A stretch of 47,693 nucleotides of DNA. Origin: a virus. Lineage: Duplodnaviria > Heunggongvirae > Uroviricota > Caudoviricetes. Below, in pieces: positions 22,888 to 33,557 of the stretch (the stretch's first letter is position 1; the number at the start of each line of letters is the position of its first letter). The translations under genes and the position numbers were made by a program. Under the pieces are notes generated by a model that did no database searches, was not told the DNA's origin, and worked only from the letters and a program-made list of their open reading frames with translations. The DNA is taken from IMG/VR virus record IMGVR_UViG_2519899780_000005, one strand, 5' to 3'.

Positions 22888-24799
22888 TCACTCCTCCGGA
22901 CAGCTTCGCTGCCAGTTCTTTAAGGGTTGGCCGGGTCGTCTCTTCTTCCCGGGATTTTGCCAGTACAGCCAGATCAAGCTGCCAGCGTTGCACGGACACA
23001 CGTAATGCCGCATAGGCATACACCAGGCAGTCCAGCGCTTCGTTACGCCGCTTTTTGTTATCCCACAGCAGACGCATCTTTCCTTTTTCCCACTTCTCCA
23101 CAAGCTCTTCCGCCACCAGTTGCTGCGCCTCTGTCTGCGAAAAAATCTCCGGATCATCAGGAAAACGGATGGCATACGACGTGGCTTCATCCGCAGGCGT
23201 GGGATCGGCTTTCATACGGGCATAGAGAATTTCTTTTGCGGTGTCCGTCCCCACTTCACACAGATACACGCCCCGCTGATTGCGGGTTTTCGGCATGGTG
23301 ATCACCGGCTTGCCATAGACAGATGCGCCTTTTACCGGCAGCACCCGGAAAACACCGTGTTTTTTTGACCTCTGATAGACAATTTCACCATCGATCCCCC
23401 CGGTGTCCCAGCAGACACGGGAAATGGTCATTTCGGTTCCGTCTGCATGGCAGTATTTTTTGTTGATCGCCGCATCCACACGTAACAGCGTCTCTTCCTC
23501 ATCGGGACGGCCCATAATGATGATTTTATCCACCAGAAAAGCTTCCTCTCCCGGTGCCCATCCCCAGACATACATCTCAAAACGGTTTCGCTGCGAGTCA
23601 ATGCCCGCCGTCAGATAAACCACCCGGGCTGGCACCGCCGCCGTGTAATGCACGACCTTATCCATCAGTACCTGGTGATCGAGTTTTTCGCCCACGGCCT
23701 CTTCCCAGGTCTCGCCCAGCGTGGTGTTCACAAAGGTTTTCAGGCCGTTGGGATCTTTCAGTGCATCCAGCCAGTCATAGACTATCTGTACCCAGGTGGT
23801 GAACGGACTGTACGCCGTCCAGATATGGAACGTGATGGAGCGCGGCGGCGGAATTTCATTATCCGCGGCGCTGAAAAACGTCAGACCGTCACGGGTCCAC
23901 ATCCCCGTGTTTTCACAGATCCACCGCCCGTTGCTCTGGTCAAGCTCAGACTGATGGATCACGCAGCCATGATGTTCACAGAGGTAGAAAACGCTTTCGG
24001 GGCTGTCCTTCTCCCATTTAAGGCCAAAAGGCGTGGATTCATCGCCAAATTTCAGATACTGCTCCTCCCCACAGTGTGGGCAGGGCACATAAAAACGCAT
24101 GAAATGCGCCGACTCGTTGGCCGCTTTTTCGATCTGGCAGGTGCCTTTGATTTTAGGCGTCGAGCCGCGAATGGATTTGGGCCATACAGAGCCCTCAATA
24201 CGTTTATCCCCAAGCAGGGTTGGCGAACCCTCTTTTTCGACATCCGGTTCGAACGAGGAAAGTTCGTCATAGCAGACCACGTCCACGGATTTTTCACGGT
24301 AGTTTTTAGCGGCAGCCCCGCCCAGGCACCAGAAGCCCACGCCCGATGAAAAACGTTTCAGCGTGAGGGTATTATCACGATGTTTACGCCCAAACCACGG
24401 TGCAAGATCGAGTAAAACCGGCACATCCCTGATCGTGGGTTCCACATGAGATTTCATAAAATCTTCAGCAGCAGAATCCGTGGGCTGGAAAAGAAGGCTG
24501 TTGCGTGATTTATGCTCAATAAAATAAGCCTCCACTCCCAGCAACATCTTTGTATAACCAACACGGGCAGATTTAATCAGATTAACAGTGCGGATCCGGT
24601 CATTCCCCATGCTGTTCATGATGGCAACCTGAAACGGCAGTGTTTCCCACCGCCCCGGGGTATAAGACGACTCTTTAGGAAGGTAATAATGTTTATTGGC
24701 CCACTGAACTGTCGTCAGTGGAACAGGAATAATGAGAGATAAAAGCCCTGTTGCTATCGCACCGGCTGCATTAGCTGCCTTCTGCGCGTCTGAAATCAT
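22871..24799 (-). CDS. A: Terminase large subunit A (likely start MISDAQKA…; ORF-track start is 24841)
   Basis: Extensive identity to recalled lambda gpA (…[17 protein letters not shown]…, …[14 protein letters not shown]…). Confidence 0.95.
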
Positions 24800-25319
24800 C
24801 GATCCACCCGCCCACGTTTTCACCGGCCTTAGCTGAAACATTGGAGGCTTTCGCGATTTCAGTTTTCACCACATCAAGGTGTGATGGTGAAATGTCCGGA
24901 TATTTACGCTGTAATGTCAACGGCACACGCACAAGTATCCCCGAAATCTCCTGTGCCACACGTTGCAGAATGAAGGTAAACAGTTCAGTTTCCAGCACTA
25001 CTCCGTCTTCACGGGCATTTTTCAGTTCCTGCGCATCTGCCTGCGCTTTTGTGAGCCGGTAGCGTTCATAGTCAATGGTGCCGGGTTGTAAATCTGACTC
25101 CGCTGCCGCACGCAAATCGTCCAGTTCTTTGCGGAGCTTTTCGTTTTCGATATCAGTTTCCCTCTGCGCATACCACTGAATTGCCATGGCAGTATCAAAT
25201 ACAGATTCAATGCCCTTACTACCTTTGGAGGCGCAAGGGAGTCCCTGAGACTGCCAGCGTTCAATCGTCCGCGGGTCCACGTTGAAAATTTCGGCAAGCC
25301 TCTTTTTATTAACCTTCAT
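24771..25319 (-). CDS. nu1: Terminase small subunit Nu1
   Basis: [28 protein letters not shown]… matches recalled lambda Nu1. Confidence 0.95.
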
Positions 25320-25345
25320 GAAAACAACCCATTATCAAATACAAG

Positions 25346-25393
25346 GCCCGACATGAAAACGCCAGAAAAAGGCATTTTCGGACACTTTCATGT
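25346..25393. promoter_or_regulatory. cosB-like inverted repeat between cosN and nu1
   Basis: ggcccgacatgaaa…tttcatgtcggacc inverted repeat, analogous to the terminase-binding region of lambda cos. Confidence 0.5.
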
Positions 25394-25495
25394 CGGACCT
25401 TTACGGATGCAATATTAAAAAAAACAAAAAGTTATATTCGAGAAGTACCGACACGATTTTCCCTGAAAAATTTTCATAAATAGTGAAAAACCGCG

Positions 25496-25507
25496 AGGTC
25501 GCCGCCC
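25496..25507 (-). other. cos: cosN cohesive-end sequence (GGGCGGCGACCT on the minus strand)
   Basis: Minus strand reads gggcggcgacctcgcggtttttcactatttatgaaaattt, near-identical to the recalled lambda left end. Confidence 0.8.
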
Positions 25508-25719
25508 CGTAACCTGTCGGATCGCCGGAAAGGACCCACCAAAAATGATAATGATTGTCAAATACGTTTATCACACTGATATTCAGAATCACTACTGAAA
25601 GACTCCCTTTGTGGTGCGCGAGGGATGCGCATAAAAAAACCACCAGCAAATGCCAGTGGCTAAAGATATTCATTGCGAATAACCATCACAAAACAACTTA
25701 ACTCGTGAGGGTAGAAATT

Positions 25720-26124
25720 TTACTCGAGGCCAAATTTCTTCTTTAAATAGGCCTTCGTTAACTCCAGCCCAACATCTTTGATTGTACTCAAAGGGGCATC
25801 GCTCATTGACTTTAATTTCTCAAAAACCGTAGGTTCATTTAATGCCTGGGCGAATTCTTGTCCCTGCGCAGATAGTCGCACGTCGGTACCCATATCTAGC
25901 ATATGGCCACAATGGCGCATGTAGCCCAGTTTAGTTATGTCATCCGTTATTAGATCTTTATTACTGATATAACCTTGCTCAATAAGAAGTAGATAATGAA
26001 ACATCCCTTCATTCGAGCAGATATCGTACCCCGCATTAGCTAAGTCTTTTGTAGATATAAAGGGAGTTTTCGCTTTCAAAAATACCTCAAGCATCCCCTT
26101 CATGTATTCTAAATTTTTAACCAC
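25720..26124 (-). CDS. Hypothetical protein (134 aa), AT-rich moron, GTG start
   Basis: Strong SD (AAGGAGG) 5 nt upstream of the GTG; AT-rich; no family recognised. Confidence 0.55.
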   Translation of the reverse strand: MVKNLEYMKGMLEVFLKAKTPFISTKDLANAGYDICSNEGMFHYLLLIEQGYISNKDLITDDITKLGYMRHCGHMLDMGTDVRLSAQGQEFAQALNEPTVFEKLKSMSDAPLSTIKDVGLELTKAYLKKKFGLE

Positions 26125-26259
26125 AAAAACCTCCTTAGGATAATTGGAGGTCTAGAATACCGTTTGCAAGCACGTTGATAAATCATTATCACAGGCACTC
26201 AATGAATGCCTGCTGTAATTGCGTACGGTAATGAACGTAAAAAACCGCCCGAGGTATAT

Positions 26260-26484
26260 TTAGACATTAGATGGCGCTTTGTCAGTATAGACCCGGTACG
26301 CCCTGACAAACATCCCGTTACATTCAGAGTCCGCCTTGATATACGCCAATTCGTAACCCCGATGCTTTAGCTCTTCACGAGCTCTTTTCTCTTCCTTAGC
26401 CATGAAGTTAAGATCTTTAATTTCTGAGTAGGTATATGTTCCCACTATAAAATCTCTGCCTGGCCGTCCATTTATCAGTTCCAT
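26260..26484 (-). CDS. Hypothetical small protein (74 aa, MELINGRPGRDFIV…)
   Basis: ATG preceded by GGGAGG; ORF-track version has a longer TTG-initiated extension to 26550. Confidence 0.5.
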   Translation of the reverse strand: MELINGRPGRDFIVGTYTYSEIKDLNFMAKEEKRAREELKHRGYELAYIKADSECNGMFVRAYRVYTDKAPSNV

Positions 26485-26577
26485 GTGTCCTCCCAAAAAG
26501 TTGGTAGTCAGAACATACCATGCTAAGCGAGGTGAAAGCACCTTTATCAAGCCCCCCGCAGATAGACTTTGTAATGG

Positions 26578-26865
26578 CTACTTCTTCAGAAATGATTCGA
26601 TGAACTCACGCCGGGGATGACGATAGTTCAGAATATCTTCTGGCATCCTCATAAAGCGGTTGTTGCCGTCTTTGGCAGTAACGAAACAGCAGTGAACTCC
26701 GCAGACATCCGTTTTGATCGTGTCGCCATACTCAAAAAGCAACTGCGCCATCTTCTCTTGCCATTCTTGCGGCATAGCCTCCATGAATACTCTCGGCATC
26801 ACGCAGAACGACGCATGCGTCAGGCCAAACCACAATTGCAGGTCTTTACGATATTCTTCATCCAT
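26578..26865 (-). CDS. Hypothetical protein (95 aa)
   Basis: Complete ORF between spanin genes and cos; modest RBS; no family recognised. Confidence 0.45.
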   Translation of the reverse strand: MDEEYRKDLQLWFGLTHASFCVMPRVFMEAMPQEWQEKMAQLLFEYGDTIKTDVCGVHCCFVTAKDGNNRFMRMPEDILNYRHPRREFIESFLKK

Positions 26866-27083
26866 CGTCTTTACCTTTGTTGCAATAAAAAGCCCCGCGA
26901 ATGCGAGGCTAAATCCTGGTGTTTGTGATGACTGGCTCTTATCTCAACGCAGCCCCTTACCGCGCGCAAGATGCTCAATATCAAGCATCAGCAATGAGAT
27001 GTTAAATCTGGATTCACTCCAGAAGTGATCACCACCCTGTCTACAGAGCCAGATGTGAAGGATGATGAGTAAAATTATCGCTA

Positions 27084-27551
27084 TCATCGAAGGCATTGCG
27101 TCCTGATGTATTCCTGAAGCGTTCTCAGTGCTGTTTGGTCGCGGATAATTCCGTCCCGGATACCGAGAACGTTTCGTCCAGCAACTGGAGAGAGTTCGAC
27201 GGTGGCATCATTGCCCATGCCGGAGGCGCTGGAGGTTTCGGCTGAGGATGGCACAGGGCATTTTCCTTTGACGAGCACCCTGCCACCATTATCAAGCTTG
27301 CGACGAAGAGCATCATTTTCAGCTTTCGCATCAGCTAACTCCTTCGTGTATTTTGCATCGAGCGCAGCAACATCACGCTGACGCATCTGCATGTCAGTAA
27401 TTGCCGCGTTCGCCAGCTTCAGTTCTCTGACATTTTTGTCGCGCTGGGCTTTGTAGGTAATGGCGTTATCACGGTAATGATTCAGCCCCAGACTAAGCAC
27501 ACCACAGGCTACCAGCAGGACAATAATCACCACACACAGAACACGGTTCAT
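27084..27551 (-). CDS. Rz: Inner-membrane spanin Rz (start at MNRVLCVV)
   Basis: N-terminal TM segment then coiled-coil (…[47 protein letters not shown]…); contains the embedded Rz1 frame. Confidence 0.85.
27125..27331 (-). CDS. Rz1: Outer-membrane lipoprotein spanin Rz1 (embedded in the +1 frame of Rz)
   Basis: Lipoprotein signal LIMVAGC followed by Pro-rich mature region [11 protein letters not shown]. Confidence 0.8.
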
Positions 27552-28193: not shown

Positions 28194-28727
28194 TTATCTG
28201 TCGATTCCCCAGCACGCCAGCGCGCTCTCCTGGTCACGACGGGATACCTGACCGTAACAGTTATTTGAGCGAATACGGCAGTCTCTGCCACCGTCCTTAA
28301 TCCACCAGCGAATCGCCTCACATGCTCCCCTGCGATCACCAGCATTAATTCGTCTGTAAAACGTCGACGGGAAACACTTACCGGGACCAATGTTGTACGG
28401 ACAGAATGACGCGATCCCCGCTTTCTGGGGTTCGGTCAATGGCACTCTGATGTTTTTCTCCACCCATGCCAGCGCCTTATCACGTTCGATGGCGTTAACC
28501 TGGTCGCATTTCTCCTTCGACAACTTCATGCCCGGGACGACAGGTTTACCATCCACCAGAATGGCACCGCGACAGATGGTCCAGATACCCGCGCCATCAC
28601 GGTATGCCGTGGTGTGGTTACCTTCCTTTTCATCCAGAAACTGGTCGAGAATGTCAGGCGCAGGCGCACCAGCGGCAATCAGCGCCAGAACGGCAGCCGA
28701 CAGGCCGTATTTGATTTTGGTGTTCAT
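28194..28727 (-). CDS. R: Endolysin R (lysozyme with N-terminal signal-anchor, SAR type)
   Basis: 177 aa; N-terminal hydrophobic segment; position in the lysis cassette. Confidence 0.9.
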   Translation of the reverse strand: MNTKIKYGLSAAVLALIAAGAPAPDILDQFLDEKEGNHTTAYRDGAGIWTICRGAILVDGKPVVPGMKLSKEKCDQVNAIERDKALAWVEKNIRVPLTEPQKAGIASFCPYNIGPGKCFPSTFYRRINAGDRRGACEAIRWWIKDGGRDCRIRSNNCYGQVSRRDQESALACWGIDR

Positions 28728-28769: not shown

Positions 28770-29576
28770 TTATATACGTCCTTTAAGATAAGTCAGTCCT
28801 GGATGAAACCAGTAAGCCGGCACTTTTTTAAAGGGCGGATTATCAAAATCACGAAGAAGAGCCTCCCGCACAACTGCATCCTTGTCCGCACCACTGGCCA
28901 GCGCTTCAATCTCAGCAGCTATCTGCAGATATCCCATGCAACGGCCAACGCGCTTCATCAGCCCCTGCTTTTTATTGTTCTTCAGGTAATCAATGGCAAA
29001 TTCAATGAGCGCCTCACTATGCTGGTGCGATGGCGGTGTTAATTTCCCATTTTCTGAGATGGTTATTTTCCCGCCATCTCCGTATACAACAAAGGATGGC
29101 CGGTTACACTCCCATTCCTGATCTTTATCAGGTGCAGACGCAATAAAATAACGTTTATTTCCTTCCTCTCCGGCACTTTTAACCGTAATGGAGTACTCAG
29201 ACTGCAGACAAGACGCCTCTTTTTCTGACCGCAGTGTTGACGGCGGCATCTTCAGAGAACCAGTAATTCTTCCCGGTAGCTTTCCTTTGTAGGTTATCAA
29301 CACATCCTGCGCCTCTAAAATTATGGGGCGCTTTTCCGGCAACGGTTCGTTCCCTTCACATAACCCGGCAGCAACATCCATGAAAAACTGCTTCGCCTGC
29401 TTTTTCGCCTCAGCTTCGTAAAACTCCAGCGTGGCACCTTCAGTACGGTCAAGACTAATCGCCACATCTGGCAACAACAGTGACGGATACCCACCAATTT
29501 CCAGTGCCACAGTAACAGTAATCTTATCCGGATAATTATTTATCCCTTTAACACCCAGTTCGTATTTTTTCTTCAT
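28770..29576 (-). CDS. Hypothetical 268-aa soluble protein inserted between holin and endolysin
   Basis: ATG 4 nt after the holin stop with GGGGGAG SD inside the holin 3' end; ends 42 nt before the endolysin start; no TM or signal peptide; no family recognised. Confidence 0.6.
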   Translation of the reverse strand: MKKKYELGVKGINNYPDKITVTVALEIGGYPSLLLPDVAISLDRTEGATLEFYEAEAKKQAKQFFMDVAAGLCEGNEPLPEKRPIILEAQDVLITYKGKLPGRITGSLKMPPSTLRSEKEASCLQSEYSITVKSAGEEGNKRYFIASAPDKDQEWECNRPSFVVYGDGGKITISENGKLTPPSHQHSEALIEFAIDYLKNNKKQGLMKRVGRCMGYLQIAAEIEALASGADKDAVVREALLRDFDNPPFKKVPAYWFHPGLTYLKGRI

Positions 29577-29946: not shown

Positions 29947-31800
29947 TTATGATGATGCCGGTGCATTTATCTCCAGCACCAGACTTTCTATCTCAACGCC
30001 ATACGCTGCATTTTTGGTAATATCCGTCAGCGTCAGCGCATTCAGCCCCAGTGTCAGACTGTCTTTTATGACCTGGAATGCCGGGCCAGCCACTCCATTC
30101 AGTTTCGGAGTAACCGTGGCACTGCCGGCGGTGAACACCAGCTCCAGCGTCTGCCAGTCGTTACTGTAATTCCCGAACTCGCCCAACTTTGTGTTTCCTG
30201 CTTTCTTGTGATGCATCAGATTCAGTTTGCCGTCTGTGGTCTGGGTGAAGAACGACATCAGGAACGGGTTACCAGTCCCGGTCATCGCCACGACGTCAGG
30301 TAACGCTACATCGGTATACAGATAAATTCCCAGACCGAACTGATTGTTGGTCAGTGCGCCTGACAGTCGAAACTTACAGCTCAGTCTGCCACCCCGTGTC
30401 AGCAGGGAGACTGCGTCATCCACCGGGCGCGTCAGGGACCAGGCTTTATTGCTCTGCTTGGCGATCTTAAATACACCACCCGACAACTGAATTCCGCCGT
30501 CCTTAATGGTCCAGCCCTGCGCAGCAGCCTCTCCGGCTGTCGGCAGCAGGGAGATTGTGCGAACGGACGTATCTGCAGACGGACCCGATGGCGTGTCGCC
30601 GCCGGGCGAGGGTTTGATTTCCGGTGCCTTACCACTGATGAAGGCTGAGGTGCGCCCGGCTACGTTCAGAATAGCAGTTGCCATACGATCGGGAATAATG
30701 CCACGACGCGCCCATGAGCTGAAATGCGTCGGGCGATTTGATGATACCCAGTTTTTGTTCGTTCGGGATGCCGAACCGTAATAACCAGACCCGGCAATAT
30801 CAGGATCTTCTGACGGGTTGTTTGTCGGTGTATTAACTCCGCTACCATCGGTCATAAAGGGAACAAAATAAATCTGCTGGGATTCTTTACCTTTATATGC
30901 ACCATATACCACTTCATATTGCGTACCGTGTTCTTGTTTCCACGCGTATGTCGTGTCGCCACAAATCCAGGGGACTGATGCCGGACTTCCACCGTGACAC
31001 TGCGCTGCCAGCCCGGCAAGGTCAGCACGGAACTGCTGTACCATTGCAAGAAATGCTGCTGGCTGCTGGGCGTAACTGGCATTCGTCATATCGAATTCCC
31101 CCTGCATCCAGCATATCGCCAGCAAAACGTTTTTCGGGTTTTTCTGCAATGCTGCCTTCGTGCGGAAAAGCAGATCCTGATATAACGGCTTACCCACTCC
31201 CCAGCGAGCCGAATCCTGACTGGCCCCCGTGGACTCGCTGAATGTCCCCTCCGTGCCCTGGGTGAATGCCGAACCACCACGACAGCATGGTACCAGCAGG
31301 ATCCCCGCATTATTAGGGATATACGGAAGCAGTTTTTTGGCAATATGTAAGCCCTGGCCGACACAGCCGTACTGCCCTTTGCTCAGGTCAGCCCGGGGAT
31401 GGTTAATCGTACTCATATCCTGAACATCATGCAGACAATGGTCAGCAGGAATGATGTCGTTAAATACGCATACTTCACCACCGGGAGTCACTGTGTTACG
31501 ACGGGCCAGTTGCTTAATGCGCGGATGGGGCGCATCGTATGAATCCGGAAGCGGAAGCCCTTCACCGTAAGCCATGGCATTGGACTGCCCGGCCAGTACG
31601 ATGACGTAGTACCACTCCGGCTCAGTTGCACCACTGACGACCACATCACCTTCTGCTGCAATCGCCTGCATCAGGGTATAAGGGGTTATGGCCACCGGAC
31701 TACCAAACGGCTGCCAGCCCTCTTTCAGTTTATGTGTCAGCTTTTCCGCAAGATCTGACGGCGACGCCGCCCTGACAACATCATAGTGTTTAAATGCCAT
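29947..31800 (-). CDS. nanS-p: NanS-p-like sialate O-acetylesterase (SGNH/SASA hydrolase with DUF1737-like N-terminus); ORF-track start is 31815
   Basis: GQSNAMAYGEG catalytic motif; ~620 aa; position immediately upstream of the holin as in Stx-converting phages. Confidence 0.8.
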   Translation of the reverse strand: MAFKHYDVVRAASPSDLAEKLTHKLKEGWQPFGSPVAITPYTLMQAIAAEGDVVVSGATEPEWYYVIVLAGQSNAMAYGEGLPLPDSYDAPHPRIKQLARRNTVTPGGEVCVFNDIIPADHCLHDVQDMSTINHPRADLSKGQYGCVGQGLHIAKKLLPYIPNNAGILLVPCCRGGSAFTQGTEGTFSESTGASQDSARWGVGKPLYQDLLFRTKAALQKNPKNVLLAICWMQGEFDMTNASYAQQPAAFLAMVQQFRADLAGLAAQCHGGSPASVPWICGDTTYAWKQEHGTQYEVVYGAYKGKESQQIYFVPFMTDGSGVNTPTNNPSEDPDIAGSGYYGSASRTNKNWVSSNRPTHFSSWARRGIIPDRMATAILNVAGRTSAFISGKAPEIKPSPGGDTPSGPSADTSVRTISLLPTAGEAAAQGWTIKDGGIQLSGGVFKIAKQSNKAWSLTRPVDDAVSLLTRGGRLSCKFRLSGALTNNQFGLGIYLYTDVALPDVVAMTGTGNPFLMSFFTQTTDGKLNLMHHKKAGNTKLGEFGNYSNDWQTLELVFTAGSATVTPKLNGVAGPAFQVIKDSLTLGLNALTLTDITKNAAYGVEIESLVLEINAPASS

Positions 31801-31993
31801 GGTTCTTTCCACCATCTGAAAAATGATTCTTTAAAATACCTGACATGTAATACAGAAAAAACACAAAACCATACCTTAATTAAAAACCTCATCATCAAGC
31901 AGATATGCATGGATAAACTACAAGACGAGATATAAACCACCCTGCATTTAAATAAACAATAAACAACATCAGAAAAATAATTCTGCTCTATGG

Positions 31994-32020
31994 TTTACAA
32001 TCAAAAATATCATTTATACT
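31994..32020 (+). promoter_or_regulatory. Putative promoter (TTTACA, 15 bp spacer, TATACT) for the plus-strand moron gene
   Basis: Hexamers read from the sequence; AT-rich context. Confidence 0.3.
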
Positions 32021-32060
32021 TTTCAGAACATCACCAGCAAGGCATAAACAAGGAAACTAA

Positions 32061-32396
32061 ATGAAGTGGATTGTGATTGATACAGTTATCCAGCCATCAT
32101 GCGGAATATCTTTTTCAGTCATATGGAGTAAAATAAAATTAATAATCTGGTATCAATCGGATGCTTTCTTACCTCCTGAAAGTATATTTACACTGACTCA
32201 CACAGGCATCATGCTCAATAACAAAGTGCTGCCTGTAACCATTTACAACGTAGTACCATTCAATAAAACATTCTGGAATTTAATCAAAAACAGCCAGGAA
32301 TGCCCTACAAATACAGATAACGTATTGAATGAATGCTTTAATAACCGTTGCACTCTGCAAATATGTCCTTATGGGCTAAAACAACAAAGTCCATAA
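32061..32396 (+). CDS. Hypothetical Cys-containing 111-aa protein (AT-rich moron at the toxin locus)
   Basis: AAGGAAACTAA-ATG ribosome-binding site; perfect hairpin follows at 32441-32462. Confidence 0.5.
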
Positions 32397-32440
32397 GGAG
32401 TTTACTCACATCTGACAAAATCAATATAAACAGCCCCTCC

Positions 32441-32462
32441 GGAGAGGGGCTGGAGAGTGGCG
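32441..32462. terminator. Perfect 9-bp stem-loop (cagcccctc-cgga-gaggggctg), likely a bidirectional terminator between convergent cargo genes
   Basis: Inverted repeat read directly; T-rich tract follows on the minus strand. Confidence 0.45.
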
Positions 32463-32843
32463 CTATGTGCCATTGCATGGTGCCGGGTGCCTCCCGGTGA
32501 ATTCAGTACCAGCACCTGAATCCGCGATTATCCCATATACCTACTCGCTGATTGCCCCTCCGCACAGGGGGATTCACCATGCCAGTTTCTTTTAACAAAC
32601 TCCCCGCAAACCAGACAACAGTCAACCGCCTGAATTGTGAAGTATTTAAAAATTTCTCCCGCTAACTGATACCCGGCTAACAGTCTGGCGTTTTCTTTTT
32701 CAGCAACGGGAAAGCAGCAACCACCACACCCGCCACCAGCACACCGTCAGCCAGCACTGACATTATCCGGCTGCTGCAATGCCATTCACAAAAACAGTAA
32801 GCAATCACTTTTTACCGTAACCGGTGATAATCCAGATATGTAT

Positions 32844-33200
32844 CTACCCCAGATGAGTAATCCGAAGTTCATCCATACCACAGGTCCTGGCTATTCTGTT
32901 GTACTCCTGAACAAGAGCAAATAATTCTGAATTAGCCACCATGAACTCATCGCAAACCCTCTGTATAGCATCACTATTCAGAATAATAACGTCTCTTCCC
33001 GAAAGACGATCAGGAGTACAGAACAAAACTGTCAAACGGCTGAAGGCCTTTGCTCGTTCTGCATTGACTATATCAATACGCTGCCTAAGGATGAAACACC
33101 CCGACGCCTCATCAATATTCACTCTACCCACACCATATGAATGATAAATATTTAATGCTGAAAAAACCATTAGACCGTATAACAAACACTCAATCAACAC
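32844..33200 (-). CDS. Hypothetical 118-aa protein occupying the position where stx genes sit in Stx phages
   Basis: ORF directly downstream of the tRNA cluster in the late transcript; start codon uncertain (GTG at 33200 or ATG near 33170). Confidence 0.4.
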   Translation of the reverse strand: MLIECLLYGLMVFSALNIYHSYGVGRVNIDEASGCFILRQRIDIVNAERAKAFSRLTVLFCTPDRLSGRDVIILNSDAIQRVCDEFMVANSELFALVQEYNRIARTCGMDELRITHLG

Positions 33201-33307
33201 TTAACAGAACTTTTATTTTTGACAAACATATAATATTTTCAACAATATCCTGAGCCAGGTATATTTCAGTATAAGGCTCTGCCGAAAGGAATCTGGAAGA
33301 ATGAATA

Positions 33308-33384
33308 TGGCGCGCTGTACTGGATTCGAACCAGTGACCGATTGCTTAGAAGGCAATTGCTCTGTCCGGCTGAGCTAACAACGC
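33308..33384 (-). tRNA. tRNA-Arg (anticodon UCU)
   Basis: Cloverleaf folds by hand: acceptor GCGTTGT/ACAGCGC, anticodon loop CUUCUAA, T-arm GGTTCGAATCC, 3' CCA; probably argO or argN of Stx-phage nomenclature. Confidence 0.85.
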
Positions 33385-33397
33385 ATGATGCAGATAA

Positions 33398-33474
33398 TGG
33401 ACCGCCATCGGGGACTTGAACCCCGCGCAGCCAGCTTCGAAGGCTGGCGCTCTATCCCGATGAGCTAATGGCGG
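33398..33474 (-). tRNA. tRNA-Arg (anticodon UCG)
   Basis: Anticodon stem CCAGC/GCTGG with loop CUUCGAA, T-arm GGTTCAAGTCC, 3' CCA. Confidence 0.8.
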
Positions 33475-33481
33475 TATGTGA

Positions 33482-33557
33482 TGGTGGCCCTTGCTGGATT
33501 TGAACCAGCGACCTGGCGATTATGAGTCGCTCGCTCTCACCACTGAGCTAAAGGGCC
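33482..33557 (-). tRNA. ileZ: tRNA-Ile2 / Met-like (anticodon CAU)
   Basis: GGCCCTTTAGCTCAGTGGT…ACTCATAATCG…GGTTCAAATCC…CCA; CAU anticodon in an Ile2-like body. Confidence 0.8.

Follow-up and report, generated by a model that had tools for sequence, protein, structure and literature searches.

The Rz-to-cos interval of a lambdoid prophage

The IMG/VR virus record IMGVR_UViG_2519899780_000005 (Caudoviricetes) comprises 47,693 nucleotides (nt) of DNA, the whole of which is referred to here as the window and is a lambdoid prophage read on the minus strand. The interval between its spanin genes and its cos site is filled by three small, mutually unrelated genes encoding proteins of 95, 74 and 134 amino acids (aa; positions 25720–26865). 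An earlier note on this DNA, made from the sequence alone, had placed three minus-strand open reading frames (ORFs) in this interval and considered them a plausible toxin-antitoxin (TA) or defence module. The ORFs are present, with the coordinates and starts listed below, and the region is ordinary mosaic accessory (“moron”-type) cargo; with a probability of roughly 70%, the genes are three independent single-gene accessory modules and not one co-operating system.

27084–27551, minus strand: Rz i-spanin gene (PF03245), stop codon at 27084, upstream boundary of the slot
26578–26865, minus strand: 95-aa gene, ATG start, RefSeq WP_000343118, PHROG 3527
26260–26484, minus strand: 74-aa gene, ATG start, Shine-Dalgarno (SD) sequence GGGAGG, PHROG 6100
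26176–26193, minus strand: candidate promoter/operator, consisting of the extended -10-like box TGTGATAAT and the palindrome TGATAA-N4-TTATCA
25720–26124, minus strand: 134-aa gene, GTG start, SD sequence AAGGAGG, WP_000240372, divergent DUF2513-type winged helix, PHROG 585
25496–25507, minus strand: lambda-type cosN, GGGCGGCGACCT, downstream boundary of the slot

The genes are separated by spacers of 93 nt (95-aa to 74-aa gene) and 135 nt (74-aa to 134-aa gene). The strong SD sequences claimed for two of them can be read directly, GGGAGG lying 4 nt ahead of the 74-aa ATG and AAGGAGG 5 nt ahead of the 134-aa GTG. Mechanically, the 74-aa ORF extends back to a TTG at 26550 (96 aa), and the ATG was taken as the start because all homologues are 74 aa in length and the SD sequence precedes it. 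A Pectobacterium homologue of the 134-aa gene has an ATG at the codon of the GTG start. The G+C content of the three-gene region is 43.4%, compared to 51.5% for the window (5.7th percentile among equal-sized windows). An AT-rich island, as previously described, is apparent for the sources of this low value, the 134-aa gene (40.0%), the 74-aa gene (43.6%) and the spacers, but not for the 95-aa gene (47.9%; G+C at third codon positions, 0.60), which does not stand out. Ratios of nonsynonymous to synonymous substitution rates (dN/dS) of 0.04–0.19 for the 74-aa gene, 0.14 for the 134-aa gene and 0.06–0.24 for the 95-aa gene indicate that purifying selection acts on all three. The 74-aa gene is not annotated by PGAP in the RefSeq genomes of Escherichia coli O104:H4; given this purifying selection and the presence of the exact protein on 439 contigs, its omission is considered an annotation gap.

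Independent assortment of the three genes

Over the 1.2-kb stretch with the three genes, a prophage of E. coli O104:H4 (e.g., NC_018658, 2917984–2919184) and 25 further complete genomes are 100% identical to the window. A survey of 5,426 complete E. coli genomes yielded 95 with at least part of the island; all three genes were present in 26 of these, mostly belonging to the O104:H4 clone. The other combinations were the 74- and 134-aa genes together (query positions 324–1201), the 74-aa gene alone (324–781) and the 95-aa gene alone (1–360), and the breakpoints between combinations coincided with gene boundaries.

Phage records, E. coli genomes, IMG/VR and metagenome assemblies supplied 58 related loci, and the first 53 were searched with the three proteins using tblastn. 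Co-occurrence was limited to copies of ~99–100% identity, and every diverged homologue (≤97% identity) occurred without the other two genes within 3–6 kb on either side. These solitary homologues span from 96% to 30% identity for the 134-aa protein, 82–83% for the 74-aa protein, and from 97% to 38% for the 95-aa protein. Their neighbours were variable: downstream of the 74-aa homologues was either a 65-aa ORF with a DUF6694 gene or a DUF6953/DUF2158 pair in reverse orientation; KilA-N genes, DUF2560 or spanins stood ahead of the 134-aa homologues, and HNH with Terminase_4, DUF1441/GpA or Terminase_2 came after them; and a homologue of the 95-aa gene stood directly after the spanins in phage HF4s, E. 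coli EC9682, and Yersinia and Erwinia prophages. As the homologues are independent, their neighbours varied and the spacers 93 and 135 nt long, the arrangement reflects classical lambdoid mosaicism and not an operon that evolves as a unit. Lambdoid mosaic recombination would have brought the three genes side by side within a permissive Rz/Rz1-to-cos/terminase junction and, with all three co-oriented with the late operon, induction would lead to their expression by Q-antiterminated read-through across the terminator-like hairpins.

Protein families

None of the three products had been assigned to a recognisable family, and this stands for direct matches at the level of Pfam, but PHROGs 3527, 6100 and 585 match strongly and the 134-aa protein falls in the DUF2513 superfamily. 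Sub-threshold matches to DUF6645, Glyco_hydro_59_C, DUF3882 and IcmE were discarded. Hydropathy analysis identified no signal peptide, lipobox, transmembrane segment or N-terminal hydrophobic leader in any of the three proteins, with maximum Kyte-Doolittle values (19-residue) of 0.99, 0.17 and 0.56, all <1.6.

The 95-aa protein, which is soluble and acidic and has no transmembrane segment by hydropathy, matches PHROG 3527 (2.5e-56) at the C-terminal end of the 233-position profile. Homologues of ~95–105 aa occur across the Enterobacterales (n = 41), with an alignment that contains 14 invariant columns and a near-invariant NYRHP motif. By tblastn, the family was present in 28 phage records, including virulent Sashavirus, Klebsiella, Cronobacter, Vibrio, Pseudomonas and Stenotrophomonas phages, and its position shifts between them: phage Sasha has the gene in a small operon flanked by structural genes, Vibrio phage Seahorse has it immediately ahead of the small terminase, and in a Stenotrophomonas phage the gene and the beginning of the DNA polymerase I gene overlap. 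In two Pseudomonas phages the domain is C-terminal in a longer protein encoded near primase genes (Psp6 gp31, 344 aa, L021:2730–3764; Dolphis gp64, 243 aa, L022:2099–2830), and the N-terminal extensions of these proteins had no Pfam or annotated PHROG match and gave no Rosetta-stone hint. Since virulent phages share the family, it more likely serves lytic growth than lysogenic conversion, and the 95-aa protein would probably act for the phage during lytic growth, not for the lysogen, as a host- or defence-modulating factor. As a small conserved domain found in temperate and virulent phages and in Pseudomonas-phage fusions, PHROG 3527 is a reasonable candidate for accessory-gene screens. The phage Sasha homologue is annotated as ‘TMD’; hydropathy gives the 95-aa protein no support for this label. 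An AlphaFold2 model built from a 31-sequence alignment had a predicted local distance difference test score of 50.8 and was unusable for a fold search.

The 74-aa protein matches PHROG 6100 over its full length (1e-55). Its homologues form five clusters only, all from enterobacterial prophages or metagenomes, and are always located within the lysis-terminase gap; tblastn detected none in isolated phage genomes. Small genes, DUF2560-type and otherwise, precede DUF2513 genes in one Klebsiella and one Yersinia phage, and the 74-aa protein was considered as such a partner and rejected, having no similarity to them. The 74-aa product is a small soluble accessory protein restricted to enterobacterial prophages, and no inference is drawn beyond ‘accessory’.

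A divergent DUF2513-type protein at the lysis-terminase junction

The 134-aa protein matches PHROG 585 over its full length (3e-31). The protein itself had no direct match in Pfam, with none to PF10711 at E ≤ 1. A Klebsiella-phage homologue (30% identical) is annotated as DUF2513, 5 of 14 close relatives match PF10711 (best E, 2e-12), and a profile search of 1.84 billion representatives returned 218 relatives, of which 101 were scanned and 63 matched PF10711 (best E, 9e-15) with no other family matched. Residues H43, G67, R83, L84 and G88 are near-invariant in the family and form an RL(T/S)xxG signature. The predicted fold was confident, with an N-terminal winged helix-turn-helix (~residues 1–85) and a C-terminal helical extension, and a Foldseek search of the model against the PDB and BFVD returned weak matches (E ~0.02) to generic winged helices only. 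By transitive homology and fold, the 134-aa protein is a divergent DUF2513-type winged-helix protein. It shares with PF10711 (DUF2513), a winged-helix family frequent among phages and prophages, a length of ~130–145 aa, the motif RL(T/S)xxG(H/Q)(D/E)F, the conserved histidine of helix 3 and the winged-helix fold, and differs from typical members in belonging to an enterobacterial sub-branch confined to the lysis-terminase junction. The resemblance to winged helices of the MarR/PadR/TubR type is limited to the fold (identity, 8–18%; Foldseek E ~0.02); the protein lacks a MarR-type dimerisation helix pair, has a longer wing and is acidic (isoelectric point, 5.9). Literature searches on DUF2513, DUF2560, PF10711, the RefSeq accessions and the PHROG identifiers found no functional study.

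The genomic context of this family is consistent. In 13 diverged IMG/VR loci, 12 holins, 10 endolysins, six Rz/DUF2514 spanins and five Q antiterminators were among the products encoded within 2.6 kb upstream of the 134-aa homologue, and 12 small terminases of four types, large terminases and portals among those encoded within 4.6 kb downstream. Further contexts agreed on the position between lysis and terminase genes, with the exception of a Pectobacterium prophage remnant (L014) in which no terminase was visible. The enterobacterial branch of DUF2513 is near-constant at a junction that it occupies alongside at least five types of terminase, which provides a defined context for a large family.

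In the clade of the window (82–100% protein identity), ~95 nt of upstream DNA travel with the 134-aa gene, and the DNA further upstream is unrelated. This block contains the extended -10-like box (26185–26193), overlapped by the palindrome (26176–26191), which is invariant in all four copies and occurs once in the window; the box differs by one base in two of the four. The conserved -10-like box and the overlapping palindrome suggest that the gene has its own promoter with an autoregulatory operator. The protein would most likely bind DNA as an oligomer, and it would most likely work as an autoregulated small DNA-binding protein, with weak production from the prophage and higher output late in infection. 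This specific autoregulation mechanism is proposed tentatively, at clearly less than even odds, and for this one DUF2513 clade it offers a candidate operator that can be tested.

The interval as a site of accessory cargo

The contents of the slot vary among related phages, in agreement with the description of this interval as a cargo hotspot. Phage PhiR57_1 has the same phage-21-type cos and Nu1, and its slot holds bor, a tonB-like fragment and two reversed ORFs; in other prophages the slot contains remnants of KilA-N or HNH genes. Known morons of lambdoid phages include lambda bor and lom and the ‘ant moron’ of the P22 group (PMC2629481). Like these, the three genes are present or absent among otherwise syntenic phages and occupy a constant junction within the late operon. 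The G+C content of the 134- and 74-aa genes, though not of the 95-aa gene, differs from that of the window (40.0% and 43.6% vs. 51.5%). Morons are phage-operon inserts with independent transcription; in the interval, a candidate promoter lies at 26185–26193, absent from the list of a consensus scan, and terminator-like hairpins lie at 26891–26910 and 25638–25661, and for the 95- and 74-aa genes no promoter was found. Unlike bor and lom, which are membrane or lipoprotein conversion genes, the three products are predicted to be soluble with no transmembrane segment, and the 95-aa family, unlike the lambdoid morons, is also resident in virulent phages.

Several observations weigh against three independently acting modules, or against parts of the mechanism attached to them. 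The 74- and 134-aa genes co-occur at 100% identity in several unrelated E. coli lineages, and a functional pair that has spread recently, as opposed to simple linkage, could account for this. The proposed promoter scores under the threshold of the scanning tool and depends on the extended -10 box and on its conservation in four copies that are 82–100% identical at the protein level. An acidic protein (isoelectric point, 5.9) is unusual for a DNA-binding winged helix, and the 134-aa protein could instead be a protein-binding module. Homologues of ~50% identity start only ~50 nt after Rz, leaving no room for a promoter, so autoregulation is not general to the family. Lastly, the structure-based comparison with toxins, antitoxins and anti-defence proteins covers the 134-aa protein only.

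Alternative roles

A counter-defence (anti-immune) or superinfection-exclusion role may be played by one or more of the genes individually, in which case the slot would be an accessory region for the phage-host arms race. This is possible, if unlikely. It is favoured by one relative, IMG/VR UViG_2791355168_000002, in which an 80-aa ORF (L050:5219–5458) with an Acb2/Tad1 hairpin domain (56.3 bits vs. a cut-off of 27) occupies the lysis-terminase slot and precedes a DUF2513-like homologue by ~540 nt; through this ORF, a sponge gene of the anti-CBASS/Thoeris type shares the cargo site. The genes of the window are also small, soluble, fast-swapping and under purifying selection, and, in a manner typical of accessory genes, the 95-aa family changes position among the phages that carry it, both temperate and virulent, in Enterobacterales, Vibrio, Pseudomonas and Stenotrophomonas. 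However, the argument is one of guilt by association from a single locus, none of the three proteins matched an anti-defence or defence family in Pfam or PADLOC, and the structural matches of the 134-aa protein were generic winged helices. The hairpin domain of Acb2/Tad1-type sponges (PF24729) likewise had no match in any of the three. That at least one of them is a new single-gene counter-defence or exclusion factor has perhaps one chance in a handful, with the 95-aa PHROG 3527 protein and the DUF2513-type protein as the best candidates. If so, the lysis-terminase junction of lambdoid and P22-like phages would be a general hotspot of counter-defence or exclusion genes, as hinted at by the Acb2/Tad1-like gene.

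The constancy of the 134-aa gene raises a second alternative, that the DUF2513-type protein is a conserved late accessory of packaging or of late-gene control, for instance by binding near cos or pac or by modulating terminase. In nearly all of ~20 independent contexts, lysis genes and terminase flank the gene, which is co-oriented with the late operon, is the last gene before cosN in the window and encodes a DNA-binding-type predicted fold. Yet the terminases found with it belong to at least five unrelated types (Nu1/GpA, DUF1441/GpA, Terminase_2, Terminase_4 with HNH, and DUF2280), and the gene is missing from most phages with the same cos and terminase, PhiR57_1 among them, with parts of the island in only 95 of the 5,426 E. 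coli genomes. The palindrome, moreover, is found nowhere else in the window, cos included. A role of this kind is improbable. Given this lack of relationship among the partner terminases, and the absence of the gene from most phages that share the terminase of the window, its constant junction is probably that of persisting cargo, kept in place by recombination in the conserved flanking genes, and not the mark of a packaging function. The possibility that these are ordinary conserved phage late genes, which would have counted against the earlier note, is in part borne out, in that the 134-aa subfamily recurs at the lysis-terminase junction.

The proposal of the earlier note itself, a single TA or multi-gene anti-phage defence module formed by all three genes or by the 74- and 134-aa pair, is very improbable. 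The slot does hold cargo of many kinds, the low G+C content and strong SD sequences are as described, a winged-helix protein beside a small protein superficially resembles an antitoxin or regulator with its toxin, and the pair is 100% identical in several E. coli lineages. Similarity to type II TA modules extends to small, adjacent genes on the same strand, one of them with a DNA-binding-type fold. Unlike in such modules, the pairing is not conserved: it is lost once homologues diverge, four gene combinations exist in E. coli, and the 134-aa subfamily recurs by itself in the same slot. The 93- and 135-nt spacers show neither overlap nor tight coupling, and the conserved promoter-like block in the longer one is specific to the 134-aa module. 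Virulent phages, too, carry the 95-aa family. No toxin, antitoxin or defence family was matched by any of the three proteins in searches of Pfam, NCBIfam, PADLOC and PDB sequences, including profile versions, and PADLOC-DB v2 returned no family at E ≤ 1. As a mosaic of independent cargo, the apparent three-gene system does not belong among candidate TA or defence operons.

That the ORFs are decaying remnants or chance ORFs without function is scarcely credible: PGAP skips the 74-aa ORF, a partial Rz duplicate adjoins and none of the three has an assigned function, but dN/dS values of 0.04–0.24 across the genes contradict decay, full-length homologues are known down to 43–50% identity, each product has a strong PHROG match, and the predicted fold of the 134-aa protein is confident.

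The prophage with the three independent modules is present in the E. coli O104:H4 outbreak lineage; nothing in the analysis ties the three genes to virulence.

Flanking features and other observations

Further features of the region are as follows.

28194–28727, minus strand: lysozyme gene
27125–27331: Rz1, embedded in Rz
26944–27096, minus strand: 50-aa ORF directly after Rz, corresponding to a partial Rz duplicate
26891–26910, minus strand: intrinsic-terminator-like hairpin with T-run, between the Rz-fragment ORF and the 95-aa gene
25638–25661, minus strand: intrinsic-terminator-like hairpin with T-run, ~60 nt past the 134-aa stop codon and upstream of cosN
24771–25319: Nu1, start at 25319, with the large terminase beyond

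The cos region around cosN is of the phage-21 type (99% identical to phage 21). At the other end of the slot, the first ~200 nt past Rz (window positions 26866–27096) are 96–98% conserved in many lambdoid and P22-like phages, and in another E. coli genome PGAP labels the stretch equivalent to the 50-aa ORF a partial i-spanin (Rz) pseudogene. A sigma-70-like site (27005–26977) lies inside this ORF, with the strong terminator-like hairpin at 26891–26910 downstream, and the two could alternatively mark a short transcript. An Rfam scan of 25200–27300 gave chance-level matches only. The prophage small RNA svsR, known from the literature, is located at cI and is irrelevant to the Rz-cos interval.

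In two of the related loci, further cargo was observed between the Q antiterminator and holin genes. An Erwinia-type prophage (L056:172–1283) has a reversed pair of a CdiI_2 immunity gene and a bacterial RNase-A-like toxin gene at this position, and a second locus (L009:2245–3188) has a reversed HicB-like antitoxin gene with a 97-aa partner.

Elsewhere in the window, a 268-aa ORF (28770–29576, minus strand) is situated between holin and lysozyme. Its residues 1–100 match DUF1327/YdfR (E, 7.5e-44), and the 168 in-frame residues that follow have no family match; PGAP calls only a truncated YdfR pseudogene, and the ORF may be a fusion made by insertion or replacement. The lowest G+C content of the window (~0.41) occurs in ~1.5 kb of AT-rich DNA (31816–33307) that contains only a 111-aa ORF on the plus strand and a 118-aa ORF on the minus strand, both without a Pfam match. 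This DNA is flanked by a tRNA-Met/Arg/Arg cluster (33308–33557) and a SASA/NanS-p-type esterase gene (29947–31815), and in Stx phages the site between the two is occupied by the stx genes.
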